The notes under the pieces were generated by a model. The model did not search any database, had not been told where the DNA came from, and was given only the letters and a program-made list of their open reading frames with translations. From an uncultured archaeon (GTDB taxonomy: Archaea > Altiarchaeota > Altiarchaeia > IMC4 > QMZM01): 64,000 nt of DNA. Numbering within the stretch: the first letter of the stretch is position 1; the number at the start of each line of letters is the position of its first letter. Of this stretch, positions 32,025 through 63,446 are shown in pieces. The DNA lies in NCBI GenBank assembly GCA_964549685.1, contig CAZJVE010000004.1, positions 1-64,000 of the forward strand, in the 5' to 3' direction. Made by a program: the position numbers and the translations under genes.

Positions 32025-35000
32025 ATGAATTCGAAATTCATAACTCTTGTTGCCGTTTTAATCCTTGTTTCCACCGCATACGGGCAGGAAACAACCCCCT
32101 ATGCTGTTGTTGGTCGCGTCTATCAGCAGGATGGCGAAACACTCCAGGCCGATGCTGCCATCACCCTTATCTACCTACCGACCGGCGAGACCCTCACTCA
32201 GGATTCCTCGGCAAGCGGCGACTATCTCTTCGACATCTCGGACTTACCCGGCGGCTACGAGGTCGGGGAGCAGATACAGATTATTGCCGAATACAACAAT
32301 TCCGGGGCGAGCGTCATAGAGACGATAATCGAGGACGGCCCCATATTCGCCCAGAGCCTCGTTCTGGGCCCGCTGGCAGATAACGTCTCTGTCGTTCCGA
32401 ACTATCTCCAGGGCGGCGAGACTGCCGAGGTTACTGTAATAAGCCTCGTCGTAAACGCTGTCGTCAATGCAACAATAGAGGGGGCAACGACCTTCCTTAC
32501 CCAGGGGGAGCTGGGCACATATTCTGGCTATATTACTGCCCCCGACGATGACGGCGTCTATGTAGTTGATATACTGATGGAAAGCCCCGAGGGCACAACT
32601 GCACACTACCAGGAACTCCTGACGGTCGACAACCTCCCGCCCTCTCTCGTGATATACTATCCAACTAACGGCACCGCCACAACCAATCTGACAATACTGG
32701 TTGACGGAATTACTGAGCCGGATGCGACCGTAACCGTGGACGGAGTCGACGTGAACGTATCTGAACTGGGGAGATTCAACCACACTGTGACACTGGAAGC
32801 CGGCACCAACACCATCGTAGTTGATGCAGAGGACAGGGCAGGCAACATAAACCGGACGAGAGTTACCGTATTCCTCTACGCGCTCTACATCTCTGAGGTT
32901 TCGGCAGACTCGGTCCAGCTCGGCGAAGGGACCACAATCTACGCCGAGGTTATCTCAACCTTCGACATAGCCGGCGTAATAGCGCAGGTCCTCTCGCCTG
33001 ACGGAACTACCCTGAACTATCCGATGGTTGAGGCCGACGGCGGCTATGATGTTGACATCCCGGAATATGACATCGCCCAGATAGGCGACTATAACGTAAC
33101 AGTAACTGCAACGGATGTAAACGGAAACACAACCAACGGAACCGGATGGTTCGAGGTTTACGGCACGAGAAGGTTCTACGGAGATGTCCTGGATTCCGAG
33201 AGCAATCCCGTTTCCACCACATTCAGTCTCTACAGGCCCGGAACCGAATACCTCATCCATGAATTCATAACCGACGTCTTTGGTGAATATGATGTAACGA
33301 TTCACAGCAGGAATTACGACCCAATGCTTGAATTCTCGGACATGGAATTCAAGCTGAACAACATAAACTTCACCCCGCTCCATGACGACCCCATAGACGT
33401 AGACCTCCTGGAAGGCAATGAAGTCTATATTGCCACTACCGAACCCATCAAGGGCTTTGCGGTCGATACAAACATCACAGCGACCGGCATTGTGGAGATT
33501 ACCTACTCGCAACTGGAAATAAGCAACGAGGAGCTGATTGAGATTTATGGGTGCAACGACTGGGACTTTGGGAACAAGACATGCAGGGGCTTATGGACGG
33601 CCCTTGACAGCCAGGTGGACAAGTTCGCAAACACCGTAACAGCGGCAATAAGCAAGCCGCTGGAGTCAACCGCCTATATGGCTGTGGAGGCCTCAAAGTG
33701 CGGCGACGGGGAATGCATACTGGAATATGGGGAAACCTGCAGCACCTGTCCGATTGACTGTGGCACCTGTCCCACGGGAGGGGGAGCGACAGACGTTTCC
33801 GGGATAGAGGCAACACTTCTCATCCTGATAGAAAAGATAACCATTCTCGAGGAGAGACTTAATCTCACTCAGGAGCAGATAAACATAAACCTCGAAAGCC
33901 GGGAAGTGACAGAGTATCTGAGGGGCGCGATATACAACCAGACGCAGGACATGGCCCTCCTTCTTCTCGCGAAAAAGGTCGAGCTGGTTTCCGGCTACCA
34001 GGTCGTTTCGGCTGAATTATACCCTGGCGAGTTTACAAAAACGTCCATAAGAATCAAGAACCCGTCCAACAAGAGCACAACAATGGCCGTGAATATATCC
34101 GGAAAGGTCGTGGACTTCATAAGCTTCGAAGAAGAAGCAGTGGAGTTAACGCCCGGCGAGGAATCTGACCTCATAATAAACACCTTCATTCCCGAGGGAA
34201 CGACTGCCGGCAACTACTATGGTGAGTTAACCTTAACCATCGCAGATATAGCCTCGAATATACCTGTAAATATAAGGGTCCTCGAGAGGAGGGAGAGACT
34301 TCTTGACCTCAAGATTAACCCCCTTACGGACGTTATTGCCCCCGGAAGAACCCTCCGGGTTGATGTCAGTCTTTACAATCTTGGAACCAAGGATGTCAAT
34401 GTCGAATTCCTGCTCCAGCTTGTAGATTCCATAACTAACGACATAGTCGTCGAGAAATCGGAGAACATATCCATAGCTGCGGGGGCAAGCATCCCCCGGA
34501 TAGAGGACCTCAATATTTCCGAGGGCGTCAGGGAAGGAAAATACATAGTGAAAGGCATAGCCCGTTATCAAGGAGAGGGAGAGAGGGAGGTCGTTTCCAT
34601 ATCCTATGTTGACGTTAGTAAGTCATTCTTTGAGTTGCAAATCTTTGGCATACCGGTCTGGATAATCCTGCTTGTTTTCTTCATCGTAACTCTGAGCTAT
34701 GTAGCATTCCTCCTCTACAAGAGGGAGCAGTCGAGAAAGAAACGTTATCTCGAGCTGGTTGAACTCAGGAGCCTGCCACAGCCTGGACCGCGCTCAGGAG
34801 TCATCGGCAAACTGGCGGAGACCGCAATAAGGGCATTTATGCCGGTAGACCGGCTGCAGATGCATACTCTTATCGCAGGGGCAACCGGTTGTGGAAAGAC
34901 AGTTGCTGCCCAGGTTCTGGTTGAGGAAGCACTCCTGAAAGAAGCCGCGGTCCTCGTTTTCGACCCAACTGCCCAGTGGAGCGGATTCCTGAGAGCGAAC

Positions 35001-36410
35001 AAGGACGCGGGAATGTTCCGTCTCTATCCAGCATTCAAGATGAAGGACAGCGACGCGAGGGTCTTCAACGGCAACGTCTACACGATAACGGAACCCGGCC
35101 AGAGGATAGAAGTAGGAAAGCACATCAAACCTGGAGAGATTTCCGTGTTCTGCCTACATAAACTCGACCCCTCCCAGATTGATTCGATAGTCGAGAATAC
35201 GGTAAGGGAGGTCTTCCTTGCGAACCTTGAGGAGACACCAAAGCTAAGGGCCCTCTTCGTGTATGACGAGGTCCACCGCCTGCTGCCAAAATTCGGTGGC
35301 TCAGGAAAGGGTTTCACCCAGGTCGAGAGGGCAGTCAGGGAATTCAGAAAGTGGGGCATAGGTCTTGTTCTGATTTCGCAGGTTTTGTCGGACTTCGTGG
35401 GAGAGATTAAGGCAAACATAGGTACAGAGGTTCAGATGAGGTCCCGCTATGAGGGCGACCTAGAAAGGATTAAGATGAAGTACGGCGAAGACATCCTGCG
35501 CTCAGTTGTGAAGTCAGCTGTCGGAACCGGTATGGTGCAGAACGCGGAGTACAACAAAGGAAGGCCATACTTCGTCAGCTTTAGACCCCTGCTCCATAAT
35601 CCCCACAGACTTTCCGACGAAGAGCTTGACAACTATGACAAGTTCAACAAGGAGATAACCAAACTCAGGGATAAACTGGAAATTCTCAAGAAGGGTGGAA
35701 TTGACGTATTCGACCTGGAACTGGAGCTGAATCTGGCACTGGACAATGTGAAGAAGGGCTCATTTGACGTGGTCAAGATGTATCTGGAATCCCTGGGCCC
35801 AAGGATAGAGGACGAATTCTCCAAGATGGGCACCGGGGAGAGGGAGAAGGCCGAGGCCAAGGCAAAAGAGGAGGAAGAGAGTGCAAGAAGGGATGCTGAG
35901 AAAGATGCAAAGCACGGGGAGATGCTTGAGGGCCTTAAGGAGAGAAGGGAAGAGAGAAACGAGAAGTGGGAGCGCCTAAAGACGGAAAAGCCCGAGGAAA
36001 AGCCATCTCCTGAGAAAAAGGAACTGAGCTCCGATGAGAAAAAGGCGGGTGAGAGGGTAAGGGAGATAATACGCCGTGGCAGGGGGGGCGCTGAGGGGAA
36101 AAGAGCGCCGTCCAGACGCCCCCTAGGGGAAAAGCCAGCCGAGAAACCACCTGAAAAGCCACCGGCTCCTCCAGCAGGGGAAAAGCCACCAGAGAAACCA
36201 CCTGAGAGACCACCAGCTCCTCCAGCCAAGGAAAAGCCCGCTGGAGAGGACGAGGAGCTGAAGAATATGCGCAAGGAGGTGGAGGAGCTGAAGGAGCTTC
36301 AGGAAGAGCTAAAGAAGTCTGGAGGCAAGATAACCCCTGAGATGAGGAAGAAGATAGAGGAGAAACTGAGGGCGAAGAGGGAAAGGGAGAAGAAATCGTC
36401 AGGCACATAA
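32025..36410 (+). CDS. Single-pass surface protein with cytoplasmic HerA/FtsK/VirB4-like (DUF87-type) ATPase
   Basis: Signal peptide, Ig-like domains, CGDGEC...TCPIDC motif, TM (VWIILLVFFIVTLSYVAFLLY), Walker A GATGCGKT, FDP, Walker B FVYDEVHR, REFRKWG, LISQ. Confidence 0.85.
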   Translation: MNSKFITLVAVLILVSTAYGQETTPYAVVGRVYQQDGETLQADAAITLIYLPTGETLTQDSSASGDYLFDISDLPGGYEVGEQIQIIAEYNNSGASVIETIIEDGPIFAQSLVLGPLADNVSVVPNYLQGGETAEVTVISLVVNAVVNATIEGATTFLTQGELGTYSGYITAPDDDGVYVVDILMESPEGTTAHYQELLTVDNLPPSLVIYYPTNGTATTNLTILVDGITEPDATVTVDGVDVNVSELGRFNHTVTLEAGTNTIVVDAEDRAGNINRTRVTVFLYALYISEVSADSVQLGEGTTIYAEVISTFDIAGVIAQVLSPDGTTLNYPMVEADGGYDVDIPEYDIAQIGDYNVTVTATDVNGNTTNGTGWFEVYGTRRFYGDVLDSESNPVSTTFSLYRPGTEYLIHEFITDVFGEYDVTIHSRNYDPMLEFSDMEFKLNNINFTPLHDDPIDVDLLEGNEVYIATTEPIKGFAVDTNITATGIVEITYSQLEISNEELIEIYGCNDWDFGNKTCRGLWTALDSQVDKFANTVTAAISKPLESTAYMAVEASKCGDGECILEYGETCSTCPIDCGTCPTGGGATDVSGIEATLLILIEKITILEERLNLTQEQININLESREVTEYLRGAIYNQTQDMALLLLAKKVELVSGYQVVSAELYPGEFTKTSIRIKNPSNKSTTMAVNISGKVVDFISFEEEAVELTPGEESDLIINTFIPEGTTAGNYYGELTLTIADIASNIPVNIRVLERRERLLDLKINPLTDVIAPGRTLRVDVSLYNLGTKDVNVEFLLQLVDSITNDIVVEKSENISIAAGASIPRIEDLNISEGVREGKYIVKGIARYQGEGEREVVSISYVDVSKSFFELQIFGIPVWIILLVFFIVTLSYVAFLLYKREQSRKKRYLELVELRSLPQPGPRSGVIGKLAETAIRAFMPVDRLQMHTLIAGATGCGKTVAAQVLVEEALLKEAAVLVFDPTAQWSGFLRANKDAGMFRLYPAFKMKDSDARVFNGNVYTITEPGQRIEVGKHIKPGEISVFCLHKLDPSQIDSIVENTVREVFLANLEETPKLRALFVYDEVHRLLPKFGGSGKGFTQVERAVREFRKWGIGLVLISQVLSDFVGEIKANIGTEVQMRSRYEGDLERIKMKYGEDILRSVVKSAVGTGMVQNAEYNKGRPYFVSFRPLLHNPHRLSDEELDNYDKFNKEITKLRDKLEILKKGGIDVFDLELELNLALDNVKKGSFDVVKMYLESLGPRIEDEFSKMGTGEREKAEAKAKEEEESARRDAEKDAKHGEMLEGLKERREERNEKWERLKTEKPEEKPSPEKKELSSDEKKAGERVREIIRRGRGGAEGKRAPSRRPLGEKPAEKPPEKPPAPPAGEKPPEKPPERPPAPPAKEKPAGEDEELKNMRKEVEELKELQEELKKSGGKITPEMRKKIEEKLRAKREREKKSSGT
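36126..36227 (+). repeat. Intragenic 51-bp tandem repeat (GEKP.EKPPE.PPAPPA x2)
   Basis: Two near-identical 17-codon units starting at 36126 and 36177. Confidence 0.8.
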
Positions 36411-36497
36411 AAGCACCCGTCTCAAATCTACACTTTTTATCGTCTATTCTTAATATATTTCTATCTTATAGTATCATCCATTCTGTCCCCTTCCAAG

Positions 36498-37349
36498 ATG
36501 ATAAACCCCTTGCGCAAACTACTCAAAAAACTCGGTCTGGGCGCTCTTGCAACCAGGGAGAAACCCGCTGAGGAAGTTAAGGGTGCAAAGAAGAACAGGA
36601 TAATAGCGGTTGCGAACCAGAAAGGCGGCGTGGGGAAAACAACGACTGCTATTAACCTTGCGGCCTATCTCGCCATGATGGAGAACAAGGTCCTTCTCAT
36701 AGATATAGACCCCCAGGCCAACAGCACCATCGGACTCGGGATAGAGAAGGACAGCATATCCGATTCGATAGCCGATATACTCACCGACAAGGCAAAGGTA
36801 AAGGACGTAATTCTCCCGACAAAGGTTAAGGGACTTAGCATTATTCCTGCAAGCGTCCATCTGGCCGATGCCGAGATAAAACTGGTCGGGATGAATTTCC
36901 GCGAGACAATCCTGAAGAATTCCATTAATAACCTGACGAGGAACTACGATTTCGTCCTGGTAGACTGCCCTCCCTCCCTCGGTCTTTTGGCCCTGAATGC
37001 ATTAACGGCAGCAGATTCGGTCGTAATCCCTGTCCAGTGCGAGTATTTTGCTCTGGAAGGCCTGAACGAATTCATGAATGTCGTAAGCCTGATACAGGAG
37101 AGGGTAAACCCCGGGCTTGAGATAGACGGCATACTCCTTACGATGTACCAAAAGGATACAAAGCACGTGAATGAAATTCTCAAAGACATCCGGAAACTGT
37201 TCGGCGGGAACATCTATGCAACAGTCATCCCCCGGGATGAGAAATTCCCCGAGTCCTCAAGTTTCGGGAAACCCATCGGAGTCTATGATAAGAAGTCCGA
37301 CGGGGCCAAAGCGTATGAAGAATTAGCCCATGAATTTTTGGGTCAATAA
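36498..37349 (+). CDS. parA: ParA/Soj-family ATPase with N-terminal extension
   Basis: NQKGGVGKTTT deviant Walker A, DIDPQAN, DCPPSLG, PVQCEYFALEG. Confidence 0.9.
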   Translation: MINPLRKLLKKLGLGALATREKPAEEVKGAKKNRIIAVANQKGGVGKTTTAINLAAYLAMMENKVLLIDIDPQANSTIGLGIEKDSISDSIADILTDKAKVKDVILPTKVKGLSIIPASVHLADAEIKLVGMNFRETILKNSINNLTRNYDFVLVDCPPSLGLLALNALTAADSVVIPVQCEYFALEGLNEFMNVVSLIQERVNPGLEIDGILLTMYQKDTKHVNEILKDIRKLFGGNIYATVIPRDEKFPESSSFGKPIGVYDKKSDGAKAYEELAHEFLGQ

Positions 37350-37351
37350 AA

Positions 37352-39814
37352 ATGGCAAAGAAATCAAAATCTAAAGACTTAGAAGCGCTGATACCTGCTT
37401 CCAGAGCTAAGAAAACAAAAAAAGTCAAGGAGTCCGAAGTAAAGGATTACGGAAAAGTCGCTGACATTTTGGATATGACAAAGGACTATCTTGCAGAGGT
37501 AGAGACGGAAAAGCAGAAAGTAGGGGCGGAGATGAGGAAAATAATGAAGGAAAGAGGGGAACTGAGAGATGAATGGAAGAACATAAAAGAAACCAGGGAG
37601 GAGGTAGAAAAAGCCAAGGAAGATCTGGAGAATGTTCTGAAGACAAAGGCCAAGAAAGTGGCAAAGGCCCTGCCAAAGGCCGTGGCAAAAAGTCAGGCAT
37701 TGAGCACGCTTATTCCTGTAACTGGCCCCAAAGAAGGCAAAGGACCAAAGGGCGATGCTGGAAGCCTTCTGGGATTGGCCAAGACGTACCTTGCAGAGGT
37801 TGAGAAGGAAACCCGTGAGATAGAGGTCATGAGGGGGGAGGTGGAGAAGGAGGCTGCCAAGGTCGAAAAGGAGTGGGATAAAATACAGAAATCACGGGAA
37901 GATATAGAAAAGCTCTTAGAGAAGAAGGAGCAGGACGAGAAGGAGATAGACCGGCGCAGGATTGAGGTCGAGAAGGAATTCGCCAAGATAGCCAACGAAT
38001 GGGAGAAGATAGAGGGGATTCAAAATGATACGGATTCCCACCGCGACAAGCTCGACCAGGAATTCATCAAGGTTGGGAAGGAATGGACTGAAATCAGGAA
38101 GAACAAGGCTCACCTGGAGAAGGAGCTCCAGAAGAAGAACCTCGACATGGACGAGGTTGACAGGCAGAGGTCAGAAATCGACGGGGGCCTGAAAAAGATA
38201 GGCCACGAGTGGGGCAAGCTGGAGGAGACGAGGAATTCTATAGAGAAGCAATCAACCGAGCTGGATAGGGAATTCGGCAAGCTCAAGGAGGAATGGAGCA
38301 ATCTCAGGAAAAGCCAGGCTGAACTGAGCGAGGCAATGAAGAAGAGCGAGGTCGACCAGGAGAAGATAGCTCATCAGAGAGAGATAATCACGGAGGAGAT
38401 GAAGAAGATAAACGGAGAATGGAGCAAGATAGACGAGGCTAGGAAAGAGATGGAAGAGCACCGAACCAGCATTGCCCATGACTTGAAGAAGATAGATGAA
38501 GGCAAGGCGGAGCTTGAGGAGTACATGAAGAACAGAGAGGCCAGTAACAAGGAACTCGAAGAACAAAAATCCTCCCTAAAATCCGAACTCTCAAAAATCA
38601 CCGAAGAATGGTCGCAATTGCGCGAGAATCAGGCAAAGCTGGAAGAAACCCTCAGCAGCACTTCCGAATTCAACAAGAACGTTGAGGAGCAGAAGAGGCA
38701 CATAGAAAAAGAGCTGAGGAAGATAGACGACGAGTGGAGGAAGATAGACGAGATTAACAAGAGAAGAGAAATCGACAAGAGGGCAATCGAGCAGCAGAAT
38801 AAGGAGATAGAGGCCGGGCTGAGGAAGATGGGCGAGGAATGGAGCAGCATAGAGGAGCACAAGAAGAAGATTGAGGATGACCGGAAGACCGTTGACCTGG
38901 ATCTGGCCAAGGTAAGAATAGAATGGGACAAGCTGAAGGACGGAGAGAAAGAGTTCGATGAGAGAATGGCCCAAATCGAGGAGGAAGACAGAAAGAGGGG
39001 TTCCGAGAGGGACGAACTCGTCAAGCTCAGAAGGAAAATCGACGAAGACCTTGGCAGGATAAAGCTGGAGTGGGACAGGATAGAACTGACACAGAAGGAC
39101 ATACAAAGGGAAAGGGACGACATGACCGAGGAATTAAACAAGATAGAGTCCGAGTGGCAGAAGATTCAATCTGCAGAGGAGGACCTCAGCATAGAACTCG
39201 GCAAAGGAAAGATAGACCGGCAGATGGTAGAGAACATTATGAAGAAGATAGACCGGGAGTTCAAGAAGGTACACAAGGACCTGGCCAAGGCCAAGAAGGA
39301 CAAAACCAGGATAGACAAGCAGAGAAAGGCCATCACTGGCGAACTGAAGAAGATTGCCGAGATATGTGAAGGGGTCGCAGAGGAGGGCGAGAAGGCCATA
39401 AAAAGAATTCCCAGGGAGATAAAGATTCCGCTACAACCAAGCAGGGATATGGAGCTTCTTGAAAAAGAGAGGGGCAAGCTAAAGGCCGAGTGGGACAGGA
39501 TAGAGTCCGAGTGGGACAAGCTGGAGAGCGTCCTCTACGAGTCCGGCGTTGAGGAGATGATGCATGACGTGAAGCTCAAGCAGGCGGGGCTTGAGAAGGA
39601 GAAGAAGGAGATTCTTGCAAAGGAGGAGAGACTAAAGTCGTTCATCGAGGAGGACGAGTTCGAGATAGAGAAGAAAAAGAAGGAGCTTGAGCTACTGCTT
39701 CTGGAGGACGAAAAGAGGCTCAGGGAGAGGGAGAAGGAGTTGCTAAAGGAAGAAAAAAAGCTCAGGGGCAAATACTCGGACATGAGGCAACTCTTCAAAA
39801 AAGGAACAAGGTGA
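37352..39814 (+). CDS. Long coiled-coil protein (820 aa) with periodic EW repeats
   Basis: Continuous heptads rich in E/K; Trp spaced at multiples of 7; 2-bp gap after parA. Confidence 0.85.
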   Translation: MAKKSKSKDLEALIPASRAKKTKKVKESEVKDYGKVADILDMTKDYLAEVETEKQKVGAEMRKIMKERGELRDEWKNIKETREEVEKAKEDLENVLKTKAKKVAKALPKAVAKSQALSTLIPVTGPKEGKGPKGDAGSLLGLAKTYLAEVEKETREIEVMRGEVEKEAAKVEKEWDKIQKSREDIEKLLEKKEQDEKEIDRRRIEVEKEFAKIANEWEKIEGIQNDTDSHRDKLDQEFIKVGKEWTEIRKNKAHLEKELQKKNLDMDEVDRQRSEIDGGLKKIGHEWGKLEETRNSIEKQSTELDREFGKLKEEWSNLRKSQAELSEAMKKSEVDQEKIAHQREIITEEMKKINGEWSKIDEARKEMEEHRTSIAHDLKKIDEGKAELEEYMKNREASNKELEEQKSSLKSELSKITEEWSQLRENQAKLEETLSSTSEFNKNVEEQKRHIEKELRKIDDEWRKIDEINKRREIDKRAIEQQNKEIEAGLRKMGEEWSSIEEHKKKIEDDRKTVDLDLAKVRIEWDKLKDGEKEFDERMAQIEEEDRKRGSERDELVKLRRKIDEDLGRIKLEWDRIELTQKDIQRERDDMTEELNKIESEWQKIQSAEEDLSIELGKGKIDRQMVENIMKKIDREFKKVHKDLAKAKKDKTRIDKQRKAITGELKKIAEICEGVAEEGEKAIKRIPREIKIPLQPSRDMELLEKERGKLKAEWDRIESEWDKLESVLYESGVEEMMHDVKLKQAGLEKEKKEILAKEERLKSFIEEDEFEIEKKKKELELLLLEDEKRLREREKELLKEEKKLRGKYSDMRQLFKKGTR

Positions 39815-39815
39815 G

Positions 39816-40058
39816 ATGGTCGAAGAACTGAAGAAAAAAATCGATGAGACGAAGGCAGAGGTCCAGGAGAGCTGGAGGCGAATCGATGAGCTCGGGAAGG
39901 GAACACCGCAATCACTGCCAAAGCCCAAGGAGCAAAAGAAGCTCGAGGACAAGAGCAACGTAAGCCCGCTGAAGAGGGCGATGACAAAGGTGGGCCTCAA
40001 GAAAGACGGAGATAAGGAAGGCGGCGACTGGACCAGGGTGAAGAGTAACATTGACTGA
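39816..40058 (+). CDS. Small hypothetical protein (80 aa), coiled-coil N-terminus
   Basis: 1-bp gap after the coiled-coil gene, with GGTGA upstream; ESWRRIDE resembles the EW repeat. Confidence 0.7.
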   Translation: MVEELKKKIDETKAEVQESWRRIDELGKGTPQSLPKPKEQKKLEDKSNVSPLKRAMTKVGLKKDGDKEGGDWTRVKSNID

Positions 40059-40094
40059 TTGCTTTTTTACCCCCTAAATCTACTATCTAATCCT

Positions 40095-41218
<1,124 letters not shown>

Positions 41219-42120: not shown

Positions 42121-43080
42121 ATGTCGAAGGAGTTATGGGTGAGGGCAGACGGCACCGATTCCTGGGAGGAGAGAAAAGAACTCGTAAAGACGGCGCTGGA
42201 GAGCGGAGCCCAGGCAGTTCTTGTTAATGCAGGCGAGGAGAAGCTTGTAAGGGAACTGGGAAAGATAAAGGTAGTTTCAGATGGGGGAGATTCAGACATA
42301 TTTCTTACTAATGATATTAAAAAAATAAAAAAATCCACTGCGTTCTACTGTGAGATTAAGAGCAAGGAGGACGAGCGCCTCATAGCCGAGGCGGGCAAAG
42401 CCGCGGCTTATGTCATAATCAATGCCAAGGACTGGAAGGTCATTCCCCTCGAGAACCTGATTGCCGAGCTGAAGGGCAAGTGCAGTATTCTGGCCGAGGC
42501 AGGCACAGAAAACGAGGCCCGCCTGGCCCTGGAAACCCTTGAGATAGGCACCGATGGAGTTCTTGCCAGCGCAGATTTCCAGGAAGTCAGGAAGATAAAG
42601 AACCTCATAGACTCCCTTTCGGCTGAGAAGCTGCAGCTGAGGACAGTGAAGGTCACTGCCGCTGAGCCGTCGGGAGAGCACGACAGCGCGTCCATCGACA
42701 CCTGCTCAATCCTTAACCTCGGCGAAGGCCTTCTGGCAGATAACATCCTAGTCCACTCAGACACGGAGAAAATCCCCTGGATGGAACCGACGCCGTTCAG
42801 GATAAATTTAGGTATTAATTCGAAAATTAAAATTCCTGATGGAATTAAATCAGTGAAGGAATTAAAGCCAGGAGACGAAATTCTTTCTGCTAATTTCGAG
42901 GGCAGGACACGGAGGCTCGTAGTCAATGAAATAATCTCCTCAAAGAAGAAGATGCTGAAGGTCAGCGCCGATAAATCCGAGCTAGTTATCCCAGACGACT
43001 CGGCCCTTGTTGGAAGAAAAGGGAAAAAGATTCCCGCCGGAAAACTGAAGCCCGGAGATGAGATATCTATTTCTCAATAA
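42121..43080 (+). CDS. 3-dehydroquinate synthase II homolog, intact N-domain but degenerate C-domain
   Basis: DWKVIPLENLIA, ALETLEIGTDGV conserved; C-domain motifs eroded (HDSASIDT, PFRINLG; no LQNAETIRL, no RHFG). Confidence 0.8.
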   Translation: MSKELWVRADGTDSWEERKELVKTALESGAQAVLVNAGEEKLVRELGKIKVVSDGGDSDIFLTNDIKKIKKSTAFYCEIKSKEDERLIAEAGKAAAYVIINAKDWKVIPLENLIAELKGKCSILAEAGTENEARLALETLEIGTDGVLASADFQEVRKIKNLIDSLSAEKLQLRTVKVTAAEPSGEHDSASIDTCSILNLGEGLLADNILVHSDTEKIPWMEPTPFRINLGINSKIKIPDGIKSVKELKPGDEILSANFEGRTRRLVVNEIISSKKKMLKVSADKSELVIPDDSALVGRKGKKIPAGKLKPGDEISISQ

Positions 43081-43615
43081 TCGTCTCTTCGACGGCCATT
43101 CCGAAGTGCCGGCCCATTCCTTCTTTATCCACCAGGGCAAGAACCTTATCTCCAGATTTCAGATTGACCACCGAGACCGCTTTGCCATCCTCCGTCACGA
43201 GCCTGATTGTCTCGGCATTCTGCAGGAATGAATGGAATTCCACCTCCCCGCACTTCGCCTCAACAAGGAGAAACGGCCTCGTTTCTATCTTCGACCTGAC
43301 CACCTTCACCTCTCTTTCCTTCCCTTTGGAATCCACCGCGAGGAGGGGGTCGCCGCCCTTAAGCTCGACCAGGTAGCGCGTCTTCCCTCCTGGGACTAGG
43401 ACATAGGCAGATACAGGCCCTGCATTTACTCTGAATGGCCTAGTCTCAACATACGGATTCTCAACAGTTTCAGAATGAATGAGAAACATACCTCTCGACA
43501 GAGAGCCGATAAGCATACCCTCGCCCAGCTTCAGCTCGGTGTCGGTGTCTATACAGACCCTGTCCCCCGAGCCGACCTCTTCAATCTTCGTTATCTCAAC
43601 AAGAGAGAGTTCCAT
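43067..43615 (-). CDS. Stand-alone C-terminal domain of 3-dehydroquinate synthase II
   Basis: GDRVCIDT, GEGMLIGS, RPFRVNAG, LQNAETIRLV, GRHFGM..EETIIEK. Confidence 0.9.
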   Translation of the reverse strand: MELSLVEITKIEEVGSGDRVCIDTDTELKLGEGMLIGSLSRGMFLIHSETVENPYVETRPFRVNAGPVSAYVLVPGGKTRYLVELKGGDPLLAVDSKGKEREVKVVRSKIETRPFLLVEAKCGEVEFHSFLQNAETIRLVTEDGKAVSVVNLKSGDKVLALVDKEGMGRHFGMAVEETIIEK

Positions 43616-45015: not shown

Positions 45016-46503
45016 ATGGCGAGGAAAATAAAGGTATTCGACACGACGCTGAGGGACGGAGAACAAACTCCCGGAGTGGCACTGACCATAGACAACAAGA
45101 TTCAGATAGCCCAGGCCCTGGCCGAAATGGGAGTCGACATAATCGAGGCCGGCTTTCCCATGAACTCGGAGCTTGAATTTCAAGCTGTCAAGAAAATTGC
45201 AAAGGAAATCGACACGACGGTATGCGGGCTTGCAAGAGCGCTGCAGTCTGACATAGACTCGTGCATTAAAGCCGATGTAAATCTTGTCCATACATTCATC
45301 TCAACCTCGCCGCAGCATCTGAAGTATCAGATGAACAAAAGTGAGGATGAAGTCTATGAAATGGCGGTAAAGGCAGTGGAATATGTCGTCGACCACGGCC
45401 TGCCGTGCCTTTTCTCTCCGATGGATGCAAGCAGAAGCGACCTCCCCTACCTGATAAGGGTATGCAAGGGCGTGGAAGAAGCAGGAGCGGAGGTAATAAA
45501 CGTTCCCGATACCGTGGGAGTGATGTATCCTTCCCAAATGAAGGAATTCATTGCGAAGATTCGCAAGGAAATCAAAATCGACCTGGACGTCCACTGCCAC
45601 AACGACTTCGGGATGGCGGTGGCCAACACCCTTGCAGCAGTCGAGGCGGGCTGTAACCAGGTTCAAGTCGCAGTAAACGGCCTCGGGGAGAGGGCAGGAA
45701 ACGCGGACCTAGAGCAAGTCATTATGGCACTGGAGGTTCTCTACAAGACAAAGACCAACATAAAGACCGGGAACATATACCGGACGAGCAAGCTTGTTGA
45801 AAGGCTGACTGGCGTGAGAGTGATGCCCAACTTCCCGATAGTCGGGGAGAACGCATTTGCCCATGAGTCAGGAATTCATGTTCATGCAATCCTGAAGAAG
45901 GCCGAGACCTTTGAGCCCCTGAAGCCAGAGATGGTCGGCGCAAGGAGAAGGTTCGTCATTGGAAAGCACGTTGGAGTCCATGGTATAGACGCGAAGCTGA
46001 AGGAGATTAACCTGGAGGTCAACAAGGAGCAGCTGAAGGACATAACTCAGAAGGTCAAAGATTTGGGCAGCATGGGCAAGAAGGTATTCGAAGAGGACCT
46101 TGTTGCAATAGCGGAGGATGTCATAGGCAAGGTCCCGGACAAGGACGTCATAGTCGAGCTGAAGGACATGAAGCTGAGCGCAGAACTCGGAAAGGAGCCC
46201 GTAGCAACGGTGGTACTCAGTGTAAGGGGCAAGGAGAAGAAGGCCACCGAGGAGGGCGTAGGCCCTGTAGATGCAACCCTGAGCGCAATCAGAAGTGCAG
46301 TCGGCGAGAAGAACATAACTCTGGATGAATTCCACCTTGACGCAATCACGGGGGGTTCTGACGCCCTTGCTGATGTGACTATAAAGGTATCCGACGGAAA
46401 GAAGACGACCATGGCGAGAGGAGTCCATGAAGACGTGGTCATGGCCGCGGTCATAGCCTTCATAAACGGCCTGAACAGGATTCTGAGACTAGAATCTAAA
46501 TAG
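45016..46503 (+). CDS. leuA: 2-isopropylmalate synthase
   Basis: DTTLRDGEQ, VHTFISTS, PDTVG, HCHNDFG, HESGIH, regulatory domain GVGPVDA/GGSDALA. Confidence 0.85.
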   Translation: MARKIKVFDTTLRDGEQTPGVALTIDNKIQIAQALAEMGVDIIEAGFPMNSELEFQAVKKIAKEIDTTVCGLARALQSDIDSCIKADVNLVHTFISTSPQHLKYQMNKSEDEVYEMAVKAVEYVVDHGLPCLFSPMDASRSDLPYLIRVCKGVEEAGAEVINVPDTVGVMYPSQMKEFIAKIRKEIKIDLDVHCHNDFGMAVANTLAAVEAGCNQVQVAVNGLGERAGNADLEQVIMALEVLYKTKTNIKTGNIYRTSKLVERLTGVRVMPNFPIVGENAFAHESGIHVHAILKKAETFEPLKPEMVGARRRFVIGKHVGVHGIDAKLKEINLEVNKEQLKDITQKVKDLGSMGKKVFEEDLVAIAEDVIGKVPDKDVIVELKDMKLSAELGKEPVATVVLSVRGKEKKATEEGVGPVDATLSAIRSAVGEKNITLDEFHLDAITGGSDALADVTIKVSDGKKTTMARGVHEDVVMAAVIAFINGLNRILRLESK

Positions 46504-59402: not shown

Positions 59403-60272
59403 ATGCCTTCACTCTTCGAATCTAACCAGCTCCTGAAATCATCGGAGCCGCTCAAACCCGCTGCCCACCAGCTCTCTCTGATGTTCCCCCAGCTTGAATG
59501 GGACCTCAAGAAAGCCGGCTACACAATCGATGTCGGGCAGTTCCTCTCCATCGTGATATTCTCGACGCTCGCCGTCTTCTTCATCGCCATGTCCTTCACA
59601 AGCACGTCGCTCGTTATAGCCCAGGGGATAGTTGGCTCATATGGCGCGCTTGGCATATCGCTCGTCGCCTCCGCCCTTACCTTCTCCTATCTCATGTTCG
59701 TTCCGAGATTCAAGATTCTAAGCAGGGGAAAACTGGTTGATAAGCACTTGGAGTATATGCTGAAGGACATGCAGATTCAGCTAACTGCAGGGATTCCCAT
59801 ATTCGACGCAATGGCGAACGTGGCAAAGGGAGGCTATGGTGAATGCTCAGTGGTAATGAACGAGATAGTTCAGGAGGTCCAGTCGGGAGAGTCAATGACG
59901 TCCGCGCTTGATAATTACGGTATGCTGTCCCCGTCGGAATACCTGAGGAGGGTTTTCTGGCAGATAGTGAATGCCGTAAAGACGGGATCCGATGTTACTC
60001 TTGCATTGAAGGCAATATCCAGCGACCTTAGGATGGAGAAGGAGAACAAGATAAAGATGTACGGCCAGGAGCTTAACCTGTGGGGGCTCATATACATGAT
60101 GGCCGTCGTTGTTGCTCCATCAATGGGAGTAACCCTTTTGGTTATTCTGTCCAGCTTTATTGGAAGCACCCAGATTAATGAACGGCTGTTCTGGATAATC
60201 CTCTTCGGACTCGTCCTTTTCCAGATAGTATTAATATCAATCATAAGGAACAAGAGACCGGATGTCGGCTAA
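59403..60272 (+). CDS. Type IV pilus/T2SS-F platform membrane protein (TadB/TadC-like)
   Basis: AGIPIFDAM...YGE.S...IVQEVQSG, WQIVNAVKTGSD, TM helices. Confidence 0.85.
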   Translation: MPSLFESNQLLKSSEPLKPAAHQLSLMFPQLEWDLKKAGYTIDVGQFLSIVIFSTLAVFFIAMSFTSTSLVIAQGIVGSYGALGISLVASALTFSYLMFVPRFKILSRGKLVDKHLEYMLKDMQIQLTAGIPIFDAMANVAKGGYGECSVVMNEIVQEVQSGESMTSALDNYGMLSPSEYLRRVFWQIVNAVKTGSDVTLALKAISSDLRMEKENKIKMYGQELNLWGLIYMMAVVVAPSMGVTLLVILSSFIGSTQINERLFWIILFGLVLFQIVLISIIRNKRPDVG

Positions 60273-61464
60273 AATGGCGGAACCACCTGAAGAAAAACCG
60301 AGGCCGAAGGGCCCAGGGGGGATAATAGCGCATTTGATACTTGACGTAATCGTAGGCAATCTGATAAAGGCCATCTCCCACCTATTCATAGCCATCGGAA
60401 ATATTGCGATACGGATTGTTACTCTCATAGTCGCCATGATGCGGCCGATTGCTAGGTTCTTCACCAATTTCATCACCTCTCTCCATGAAAGACTTGGCTC
60501 GTATTTCCCTACCGACGTTAGGGGGAAGCTGGAGCAGAACATAATATATGCGGGTGTTCCCAGGAATCCCGAGGAAACGCTGGGCACTACACTGATGTAT
60601 TCTATGATTCTGCCATTACTAACTGCAGCACTAGCGATTACACTGGGCGCGTCACTGCTCATTATCCTAGCCACAATTGTCGTCTCGTTCTTTGTAGTAT
60701 GGACCACGATGTACGTCCTCCTAACGCTGCTGATAGAGAGGAGGACGGAGAGCATAGAGAACGTACTGCCGGACGTCTTGTCCATGATAAGTCAGAACAT
60801 GATTGCAGGGATGACGCCATACAATGCCCTATGGACTGCTGCAAGGCCGGAGTTCGGACCGCTAGCTCTTGAGATTCAGAAGGTTGCAAGGGACACTCTC
60901 GCAGGGGTTTCGCTCGAGGAAGCGCTCCTGGACATGGCTTTCAGGGTAAAGTCCACGAAGCTGGACAGGGCCGTGAAGCTGATGATTCAGGGAATGAAGT
61001 CCGGAGGCGAGCTCCCAACGGTCCTGCAGGAGATTGCAACGGACATAAGAACCGAGCAGAACCTGATGAATAGAATGCGCGCTGAAACGGCGGCACAGGC
61101 AATGTTCATAGTGTTTGCAATCCTGGTCGGCGCCCCCCTCTTGTTTGCTTCGTCGATACAGTTCATAACCATATTCTCAAAGATTTACGGCAGGATAGAC
61201 TCCAACGTCCTGTCGCAGCAGGCGCAGTCCGGCCTGATGACACTCACGGGACTTTCAATCACCCCTGACTTCTATTTTATGTATGCCGTAATAACCCTGG
61301 CAGTATCCGCCTTCTTTGCATCGCTCCTTGTCGGTCTAATCAGGACAGGAAAGATAAGCTCCGGCATGTCGTCCATCCCCATCCTGATAGCACTTGCGGT
61401 AGGAATCTTCATTGGCCTGAACTACGGCCTTGGTTCGTTCTTCCAGGGAATGATATCCATGTGA
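60262..61464 (+). CDS. Type IV pilus/T2SS-F platform membrane protein (second paralog)
   Basis: LPDVL..ISQN..AGMT...AL...ARPEFGPL, SGGEL..VL. Confidence 0.85.
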   Translation: MSAKMAEPPEEKPRPKGPGGIIAHLILDVIVGNLIKAISHLFIAIGNIAIRIVTLIVAMMRPIARFFTNFITSLHERLGSYFPTDVRGKLEQNIIYAGVPRNPEETLGTTLMYSMILPLLTAALAITLGASLLIILATIVVSFFVVWTTMYVLLTLLIERRTESIENVLPDVLSMISQNMIAGMTPYNALWTAARPEFGPLALEIQKVARDTLAGVSLEEALLDMAFRVKSTKLDRAVKLMIQGMKSGGELPTVLQEIATDIRTEQNLMNRMRAETAAQAMFIVFAILVGAPLLFASSIQFITIFSKIYGRIDSNVLSQQAQSGLMTLTGLSITPDFYFMYAVITLAVSAFFASLLVGLIRTGKISSGMSSIPILIALAVGIFIGLNYGLGSFFQGMISM

Positions 61465-62981: not shown

Positions 62982-63446
62982 ATGAAATTATTGAGCAGAA
63001 AAGGACAGGGCGCTCTCGAATACATGCAGACTTATGGCTGGGCAATTCTTGTTGTCCTAGTTGTCGGCATAGTCCTCTGGCAATTCGGCGTTTTCGGCCA
63101 GCACAGCGGGGCGAACAGGGCAACCGGCCTTGGAAAAATCAAGGTCCTTGACCAGAGCATAAAGTACGATTCGACAGCAGACGAACTCACCTTTGACGTA
63201 ATAAACGGCGAGAGCATGCACATACGTGTTCTGGGGAATAAAAGTGAGGGTGACTGTAACATCATAAACATTGATGATGTAGGGCTAGATGGCGGAGAAA
63301 CCGCCACAATAACCTGCACAAACTGCACGAATTTAGATGCCGGCGAGGCCTTCGACGTGTCTATAACAATCAATTACAGGATAAAGGTAGCCGCTGACAT
63401 AATCTACCGCAACGATACGGGTCGTATCACAGGCCTTGCAGAATAG
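62982..63446 (+). CDS. Archaeal type IV pilin (class III signal peptide)
   Basis: RKG/QGALEYMQTYGWAILVVLVVGIVLWQFG. Confidence 0.85.
   Translation: MKLLSRKGQGALEYMQTYGWAILVVLVVGIVLWQFGVFGQHSGANRATGLGKIKVLDQSIKYDSTADELTFDVINGESMHIRVLGNKSEGDCNIINIDDVGLDGGETATITCTNCTNLDAGEAFDVSITINYRIKVAADIIYRNDTGRITGLAE

Follow-up and report, generated by a model that had tools for sequence, protein, structure and literature searches.

The stretch of DNA analysed here (the window, 64,000 nucleotides (nt)) is taken from contig CAZJVE010000004.1 of the assembly GCA_964549685.1, which represents an uncultured marine archaeon of the phylum Altiarchaeota, and holds at positions 32025 to 40058 four consecutive genes that we designate A to D. 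The assembly of this genome (G000) amounts to 1.17 Mb in 27 contigs and is 85% complete. All four genes lie on the + strand inside a long series of co-oriented genes, and encode a membrane-anchored HerA-fold ATPase (A), a ParA of the Soj type (B), a long coiled-coil protein (C) and a protein of 80 amino acids (aa) (D). A first-pass annotation had taken them for a single system, with gaps of 87, 2 and 1 nt at the A/B, B/C and C/D junctions; the orientation and the gaps agree with the coordinates of the open reading frames (ORFs), the A/B, B/C and C/D/ribB junctions are each spanned by contigs from another run (X5 records 1, 3 and 8), and the same gene order is found on a single contig in a second species (locus L070). 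On balance the region seems to us to consist of two adjacent units, namely gene A, of the published SPEARE type, and a ParA-type positioning operon, B-C-D, in which C would be both activator and scaffold. Our preferred reading of the latter is a ParA operon whose coiled-coil activator-scaffold is novel and PomX-like in design.

Gene B (36498..37349, +) encodes 283 aa and is, by its sequence, a canonical Soj-type ParA. It matches the Pfam family AAA_31 with an E value of 2.3e-67 and 226.8 bits (cut-off 27), with CbiA at 96.6 bits, and carries the features by which the ParA/MinD family is recognised: a deviant Walker A motif with its signature lysine (KGGVGKTT, within NQKGGVGKTT), a DxD motif (DIDPQ) and a profile score over the cut-off, together with DCPPS. 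Its core is 49% identical to Soj of Bacillus thuringiensis, in which these three motifs are kept, and B is approximately 50-53% identical to thousands of bacterial Soj proteins; the first-pass description of an atypical ParA applies just to the N-terminal extension of 33 aa, which begins with an amphipathic stretch. A homologous extension of approximately 80 aa occurs in the ParAs of a related family (f7), whose ParA genes sit in type IV pilus-like loci. In those loci (L089-L095) the extension looks like a winged helix, and the ParA gene is followed by one for a protein of 59-70 aa and then by one for a pilus ATPase that carries some 470 additional aa at its N-terminus. B is the sole close Soj-type homologue in G000, the next match having an E value of 9e-15, and ParA homologues at E 1e-30 or better are present in 15 of the 49 genomes of the order. 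In a ParA tree of 40 rows, the proteins of the window's genus (g1: G000, G001 and G002) and of the second genus that has gene C (g10: G011) form one clade (100/99), the sister of which falls below the 95/80 support level.

Gene C (37352..39814, +) encodes 820 aa, predicted to be a ParA-activating partner fused to a long coiled-coil rod. Its N-terminal module (aa 1-60) contains a ParB-like ParA-binding motif, DLEALIP (aa 9-15; 37376..37396, +), preceded by a basic run, and in all four genomes that have C the protein starts in the same manner, with a basic run, (G/D)L(E/D)xLIP and then LLxMAxxYLAE(V/L)E. A second copy of the module (aa 113-165; 37688..37846, +), reading ALSTLIP ... LLGLAKTYLAEVE, is found in this species only. 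The motif K(G/D)LE(A/T)LIP of C aligns with the N-terminus of Spo0J, which in B. thuringiensis begins KGLGRGINVFFP, and also with the proteins of 59-70 aa encoded after ParA in f7, where KG(L/I/V)xA(L/F) opens the short ORF in seven of the seven genomes with a ParA match. Passages of two papers (PMC12462528, PMC7993993) report that N-terminal peptides with aliphatic and basic residues suffice to activate ParA-type ATPases; in the second of these, PomX is described as such an activating peptide combined with a filament-forming coiled coil, activators are treated as modular, and PomX, the activator, belongs to the cargo as well. From its N-terminal motif and its gene position, C is predicted to be the cognate ParA activator of B, and the view that this ParA has a coiled-coil adaptor encoded just downstream gains from the ParB-like start of C and its alignment with Spo0J and the f7 proteins. 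C is nevertheless no ParB by domain content, since it has no Pfam or NCBIfam ParB match, no ParB_N/Srx domain and no helix-turn-helix (HTH).

The N-terminal part is followed by a heptad rod (approximately aa 148-665; 37793..39346, +) in which one heptad phase runs unbroken for approximately 517 residues, with no proline between aa 133 and 686. Hydrophobic residues occupy 87% of the d positions and 49% of the other core positions. A motif EWxK(I/L) recurs along the rod at spacings of 28 to 63 residues; all 11 spacings between successive tryptophans from W175 to W602 are multiples of 7, and 10 of the 15 tryptophans of the protein stand in the context EWx[KR][IL][DEQK]. The periodicity claimed at the outset is thus real. 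A proline hinge (aa 686-697) and C-terminal helices follow (39407..39811, +), of which the last 95 or so residues are the best conserved between the genera and contain all 32 invariant columns of a five-row alignment. A structural model of the C-terminal part consists of helices only, with a predicted template modelling score of 0.36 and no globular domain.

The distribution of C is narrow. No family in Pfam or NCBIfam matches it over the cut-off, and within the phylum it is present in 4 of 61 genomes (G000, G001, G002 and G011). A profile of C searched against 1.84 billion protein representatives returned 145 matches at E 0.001 or better, one of them at E 1e-30 or better, and five of the 145 were inspected: P0006, the match at E 1e-30 or better, is a 97-aa C-terminal fragment of C, P0081 is a 49-aa N-terminal fragment, and P0010, P0013 and P0015 were rejected as unrelated coiled-coil or repeat proteins. 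Two matches in the group g6 (E approximately 1e-11; coiled-coil ORFs of 356 and 310 aa) were likewise treated as unrelated, being encoded beside secreted or membrane proteins with no adjoining ParA; the one in G019 has a hydrophobic leader. A word-based homologue search of 7997 candidates had no match with an E value of 1e-5 or lower, two metagenome contig scans gave no relative of C, and a literature search of limited reach gave no paper on a module of ParA and coiled coil in Altiarchaeota. The nearest neighbours of C in the Protein Atlas are generic coiled coils, with scores of 0.81 or lower. Another very long coiled coil of this genome, of 1671 aa (contig C2:18609-23624, -), is 50% charged and has neither a tryptophan nor the W motif.

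Gene D (39816..40058, +) encodes a single motif of the kind seen in C (QESWRRIDEL), after which comes a basic tail that is probably disordered. It is kept within g1 (E 4e-27), and its comparison with the 123-aa ORF that stands in its position in G011 was not significant (E 2.3); the order ParA-C-D is the same in G001 and G002, and in G011 ParA is followed by C. The intergenic region between A and B (36411..36497, +) contains a T5 run (36434-36438), TTAATATA (36450-36457) and CTTATAGTA (36465-36473), ahead of the ParA ATG. Between G000 and G002 this spacer is near-invariant from the T-run on, and the bases before the T-run differ. Its layout is probably that of a terminator followed by a separate promoter, with a TATA-like stretch, before B, and the T6 run that immediately follows the D stop codon (40063..40068, +) would be a further terminator. 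Because of the conserved T-run and TATA-like block before B and the T-run after D, we infer from the sequence that B-C-D is a transcription unit of its own, separate from A. That A is tied less closely to the other three genes than these are to each other, as had been noted in the first pass, accords with this spacer as set against gaps of 2 and 1 nt. Downstream, an in-frame ATG at 40095 is the more likely start of ribB than the TTG at 40059.

Gene A (32025..36410, +) encodes 1461 aa, comprising a signal peptide (aa 1-21), an adhesin-like ectodomain in which Pfam detects Ig-like domains, one transmembrane (TM) helix (aa 878-896; 34656..34712, +; Kyte-Doolittle 2.74) with KREQSRKKR next to it on the predicted cytoplasmic side, a HerA-fold P-loop ATPase domain (approximately aa 930-1250; 34812..35774, +; Walker A GATGCGKT, Walker B VYDEVH), and a cytoplasmic tail (aa 1261-1461; 35805..36407, +). 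The tail is a charged, proline-rich coiled coil, with 54% charged residues and 11% proline over the last 200 positions, and all 20 N-x-S/T sequons of the protein lie before the TM helix, with none after it. Just after the TM helix, Pfam finds DUF87 at 37.8 bits (cut-off 23.2) and HerA_C at 28.5 bits (cut-off 22); a ResIII match (E 0.00059) remains under its cut-off. An AlphaFold2 model of aa 895-1275, built from a 17-sequence alignment, has a predicted local distance difference test score (pLDDT) of 93.2, and in a Foldseek search of the PDB its best match is HerA of S. solfataricus (4d2i, E 8.5e-13), with SIR2-HerA and HerA-NurA also among the best and with FtsK and TcpA ranking below the HerA-type matches. 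The PDB sequence matches are also HerA proteins, at E 8e-6 and weaker. With its single TM helix, both domains over their cut-offs and a HerA fold, A has been correctly called a transmembrane HerA-type ATPase. It departs from canonical HerA outside the core fold: HerA possesses a HAS barrel, for which A gives no match, its TM helix lying in that place approximately 55 residues before Walker A, and no NurA gene adjoins. Whilst HerA-NurA and HerA-based defence systems provide the best sequence and fold matches of the ATPase domain, NurA, Mre11, Rad50, SIR2 and DUF4297 are missing beside A. The earlier statement that no ParB, NurA, Mre11 or Rad50 lies nearby is in keeping with wider searches, in that no NurA, Mre11 or Rad50 domain occurs among the window ORFs scanned and ParB_N (PF02195) has zero matches across the 85%-complete genome; a NurA gene does follow a paralogue of A, on another contig. 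PADLOC reported no known defence system, just weak HerA-type and SMC-arm-type matches.

As far as it is described in passages of Hamm et al. 2019 (PMC6642349), a SPEARE protein is mainly extracytoplasmic, with a TM helix near the C-terminus and its intracellular part best conserved, and SPEARE-like sequences occur in several DPANN groups and in Altiarchaeales. A 2023 re-analysis in Frontiers (PMC10266531), again judged by passages of it, sees in the intracellular part a VirB4/TraG-like ATPase with a coiled coil after it and rejects an endonuclease reading. The extracytoplasmic bulk, the TM helix near the C-terminus and the shared intracellular ATPase region are all present in A, as are the adhesin-like secreted ectodomain and the C-terminal coiled coil, and by these sequence features A is a compact member of the published SPEARE-type family, the function of which is unknown, in a comparison with members other than the type member NAR1_1133. 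A differs from these proteins in its length of just 1461 aa, in lacking by Pfam the domains from which the family takes its name, namely serine protease, laminin-G adhesion and restriction endonuclease (no protease or laminin-G match, and ResIII under the cut-off only), and in being followed by ParA-C-D in place of a downstream gene of the p340 type described below. The ATPase domain of A is strongly conserved: of the 49 genomes of the order, 21 have matches with E values of 1e-80 or lower, many of these genomes two to four of them, in ORFs of 400-1650 aa, and a second copy in G000 lies on contig C2. A search with aa 900-1270 beyond the phylum gave 175 proteins of 2558-5000 aa with E values of 1e-20 or lower. 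Among the 120 matches listed, identity to the ATPase region is 45-62%, and the labels include Woesearchaeota, Micrarchaeota, Aenigmatarchaeota, Nanohaloarchaea, Nanosalina, Nanoarchaeota and Hadarchaeales; Nanohaloarchaea-labelled matches are 59% and 46% identical and a Nanosalina-labelled one 52%, the four such matches listed spanning 46-59%.

The usual neighbours of this family (hereafter TM-HerA) were examined at 30 loci, which hold all strong matches outside the window but one (31 of 32, without G028:C96), by clustering the four genes on each side. Those that recur are large surface proteins encoded upstream (13 ORFs), a family of 330-390 aa that we call p340 (13), KaiC-like ATPases (11), DUF835 membrane proteins (7) and a 110-aa membrane protein (5), and a p340-family gene lies directly downstream of the giant gene at seven of eight DPANN loci. 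At the locus of the G000 paralogue of A, TM-HerA2 (C2:38977-44947, locus L060), the order is DUF835-KaiC-TM-HerA2-NurA, with Pfam E values of 1.1e-56 for KaiC, 7.9e-41 for DUF835 and 3.1e-11 for NurA; the order is repeated in G001, G002 and G011, and in G010 the place of NurA is not confirmed. A literature search, limited in reach, gave no publication on membrane-anchored HerA proteins that have a NurA of their own together with a KaiC-like ATPase, or on DUF835-KaiC-HerA-NurA clusters. Proteins of the p340/p414 family (330-630 aa; loci L046, L049, L059, L060 and L102-L108) share a conserved helical core of approximately 250 aa with no Pfam match, and in Altiarchaeota their genes stand after or near TM-HerA genes. 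C was considered as a relative of p340 and rejected, with an hhalign probability of 1%.

Whether A belongs functionally with B-C-D was assessed from gene order and from the tails. A adjoins B-C-D in all three g1 genomes (in G001 they are split by a contig end). In G011, contigs C138 and C4 share an overlap of exactly 127 nt within gene C, and when joined they give a divergent decarboxylase followed by ParA-C-123aa-DUF835-KaiC-TM-HerA2-NurA; the C2 locus of G000 has the same decarboxylase and DUF835-KaiC-TM-HerA2-NurA without the ParA module. Each of the two genera therefore has the ParA-C module beside a TM-HerA gene, but the paralogue concerned and the side on which the module lies differ, and the conservation of the neighbourhood that the first pass proposed to examine extends to the order A-B-C-D within g1 and does not hold for that order in g10. 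Many tails of the family end in a C-like W motif, W-x-[KR]-[ILMV], for example EDEWERLREEISK, EEDDWKRLQDE, KDKWEKLKEELKEEK in the G011 orthologue of A and MEEEWKKMDDLR in the G000 paralogue; A has its own copy, NEKWERLKT (aa 1312-1320; 35958-35984). In g1 the tail of A reaches approximately 145 residues past this motif, and the G011 orthologue ends just after it. A strict form, [ED]W..[IML][DEQ], occurs in 6 of 1250 G000 ORFs, with at least two copies only in C (10) and TM-HerA2 (2). In the fetched loci it occurs in 12 of 38 TM-HerA ORFs and in 7 of 319 others, the two C proteins being left out (Fisher p 1e-8, genome kinship ignored). A functional link between A and B-C-D is possible, and these comparisons are suggestive of it and go no further.

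The data directly show what the domains are, how the motif aligns, that the heptads are continuous, that the distribution is narrow and how the genes are ordered; beyond this, we infer a mechanism for B-C-D in terms of binding, ATPase activation, filament formation, a ParA matrix and cargo. The two ParB-like N-terminal peptides of C would bind the ATP-bound ParA dimer and trigger hydrolysis, and the rod, with a length of approximately 75 nm for its 517 residues, would form dimers or bundles that serve as a scaffold, much like PomX in its pairing with PomZ, with D probably joining or capping the coil. The matrix of ParA would be the nucleoid or possibly the membrane, the latter bound by the amphipathic N-terminus, and ParA would move or space the C scaffold by a ratchet of binding, hydrolysis and release. 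The best cargo candidate would be the cytoplasmic tails of TM-HerA proteins. In a more specific and tentative form of this idea, C may be a ParA-driven organiser of SPEARE-type motors, its 10-15 copies of the W motif co-assembling with TM-HerA tails or binding a partner shared with them, and its duplicated ParB-like peptides giving ParA a means to cluster, space out or partition these envelope-spanning machines of adhesin and ATPase over the length of the cell.

Of the systems compared with B-C-D, that nearest in design is PomX/PomZ of Myxococcus xanthus, part of the PomXYZ system for positioning the division site, in which, as far as the published description was available, a ParA/MinD-family ATPase is likewise paired with a partner made of an N-terminal basic activating peptide and a scaffold coiled coil. 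The likeness is one of described architecture; C is archaeal and twice as long, with approximately 74 uninterrupted heptads, a periodic EW motif and, in this species, a duplicated peptide module, and at the present locus there is no PomY-like gene and the ParA is Soj-like. Chromosomal ParABS (Soj-Spo0J) resembles B-C in its ParA, in the partner gene immediately downstream and in an N-terminus like the ParA-binding motif (passages of PMC12462528), but C lacks the ParB_N/Srx, HTH and dimerisation domains, the rest of it being coiled coil, and no parS is known. Archaeal type 4 filament loci with MinD/ParA-like ATPases, mentioned in passages of PMC13705601, citing Makarova et al. 2016, are a third point of comparison, given that the f7 ParAs are 37-49% identical to B and precede a small protein that shares this N-terminal motif; the module of the window stands apart from pilus genes, and the 820-aa rod and D take the place of the small adaptor.

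A number of observations weigh against the mechanism proposed for B-C-D. The N-terminal motif is short, and M1 alone is invariant in an 11-row alignment of it. The residues R189 and R218 of Soj, which we take to be those for non-specific DNA binding, align in B with D (with K beside it) and with K, respectively, and nucleoid binding by B is uncertain because of the D at the first of these positions. As regards the cargo, ParA (phmmer, E 0.001 or better) adjoins TM-HerA among the 30 loci only in G002, which is of the same genus, several of the contigs being 3-6 kb long with incomplete flanks; the W motif was defined after the tails had been looked at; BLASTP of C against TM-HerA tails gave E values of 0.4 or higher, which are not significant; and none of the 7 DPANN family members examined has the motif. 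Only two genera carry C, so that its co-occurrence with TM-HerA amounts to two observations. Finally, the ParA relatives of f7 belong to type IV pilus loci, and a pilus-related cargo is possible.

The explanation closest to the first-pass annotation is that the four genes make up a single machine, with ParA and a filament of C localising the translocase of A in the membrane; we regard this as doubtful. It would account for the adjacency of A and B-C-D throughout g1, for the G011 module standing at the head of the TM-HerA2 operon, for a W motif common to C, D and the family tails, and for the additional residues of the g1 tail beyond the point at which the G011 orthologue ends. It does not sit well with the 87-nt gap and its T-run and conserved TATA-like block, with the recurrence of p340, KaiC, DUF835, NurA and giant surface proteins as the neighbours of the family, with the G011 orthologue of A (76% identical), on whose 8-kb contig there is no ParA, or with C being unrelated to the coiled-coil protein that usually accompanies the family. 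The claim of an undescribed four-gene system finds no support: A is in a published family, a ParA gene adjoins such genes only within the same genus among the 30 loci, and B-C-D has a conserved upstream region and flanking T-runs of its own.

The other explanations dispense with a role for A. It is unlikely that B-C-D still serves a type IV pilus-like machine as in f7, its place beside A being incidental, although in the seven f7 genomes ParA and the 59-70-aa protein are encoded among pilin-like genes, before an ORF of 730-1086 aa and PilC-like genes (Pfam T2SSE and T2SSF having been tested in G031 only), G000 retains a homologous pilus locus without ParA (C2:1-2471), and MinD-like ATPases accompany some of the type 4 filament systems of archaea (passages of PMC13705601). 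In both g1 and g10 the module is not beside any T2SSE or T2SSF gene, the C-terminal FxKSKxYxLY motif of the small adaptor is missing in C, and the tree gives no strong support for placing the g1 and g10 ParAs inside the f7 group. We find it rather improbable that the operon segregates the chromosome or a replicon without ParB, with C in place of ParB and bridging DNA directly or through the basic tail of D. The standing of B as the only close Soj-type ParA of the genome, its resemblance to bacterial chromosomal Soj, the lack of ParB_N and the basic end of D would all suit such a role, but neither C nor D has a recognisable DNA-binding domain, the R189 equivalent is not conserved, and with ParA in 15 of 49 genomes and C in 4 of 61 a core function would be limited to a lineage. 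Least probable by far is that C comes from, or is related to, an SMC/Rad50-type protein, or that it is a structural coiled coil of a generic kind without a tie to ParA. The matches that could suggest this, to the arms of SMC, Rad50, JetC and LmuB, are weak and confined to the arms, the best SMC score being 66.7 bits against a cut-off of 567, and the generic character of the Atlas neighbours is set against a complete ORF with conserved start and end in three species, a ParB-like motif and 2-nt coupling to ParA. C has no head, hinge or zinc hook, and origin as an SMC fragment, which the first pass had named as one finding that would overturn its proposal, was rejected.

ParA-type ATPases position many kinds of cargo, and to our knowledge few of their partners are known in archaea. 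Each new ParA activator shows a short peptide grafted onto a new scaffold, which for the B-C-D operon, as we read it, would be a stutter-free coiled coil of approximately 75 nm, and the presence of the same peptide on a 60-aa pilus-locus protein in a sister family offers a natural before-and-after pair for the evolution of adaptors. If the SPEARE link is true, C would provide a first testable idea of, and a cell-biological handle on, the organisation of giant adhesin-motors that are common in DPANN archaea and of unknown function; if the link fails, B-C-D would be a lineage-restricted ParA system beside an already described gene.

Elsewhere in the window, an array of co-oriented genes for secreted giants extends over 27 kb and ends at A (5033-31936, +); its products, of 724, 1445, 178, 4424, 182, 210 and 1636 aa, include laminin-G, CARDB, NosD/beta-helix, lamin-tail (LTD) and CarboxypepD_reg domains and a weak CHAT match. 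Directly 3' of D lie riboflavin genes (DHBP synthase and two DMRL-synthase-like genes) and a DHQS-II gene (42121-43080, +; 319 aa, profile positions 1-324 of 344). Converging on the latter is an ORF of 182 aa (43067-43615, -) that matches the C-terminal half of the DHQS-II family (positions 166-344, E 6.6e-82) and is preceded by a 289-aa ORF without a Pfam match; it may be a second, split or divergent copy of DHQS-II. At 59403-61464 and 62982-63446 (both +), two T2SSF (PilC-like) genes are followed by pilin-like ORFs, with no secretion ATPase gene adjoining, and paralogous LeuA/homocitrate-synthase-like genes of 492 and 495 aa lie at 119-1597 and 45016-46503 (both +).

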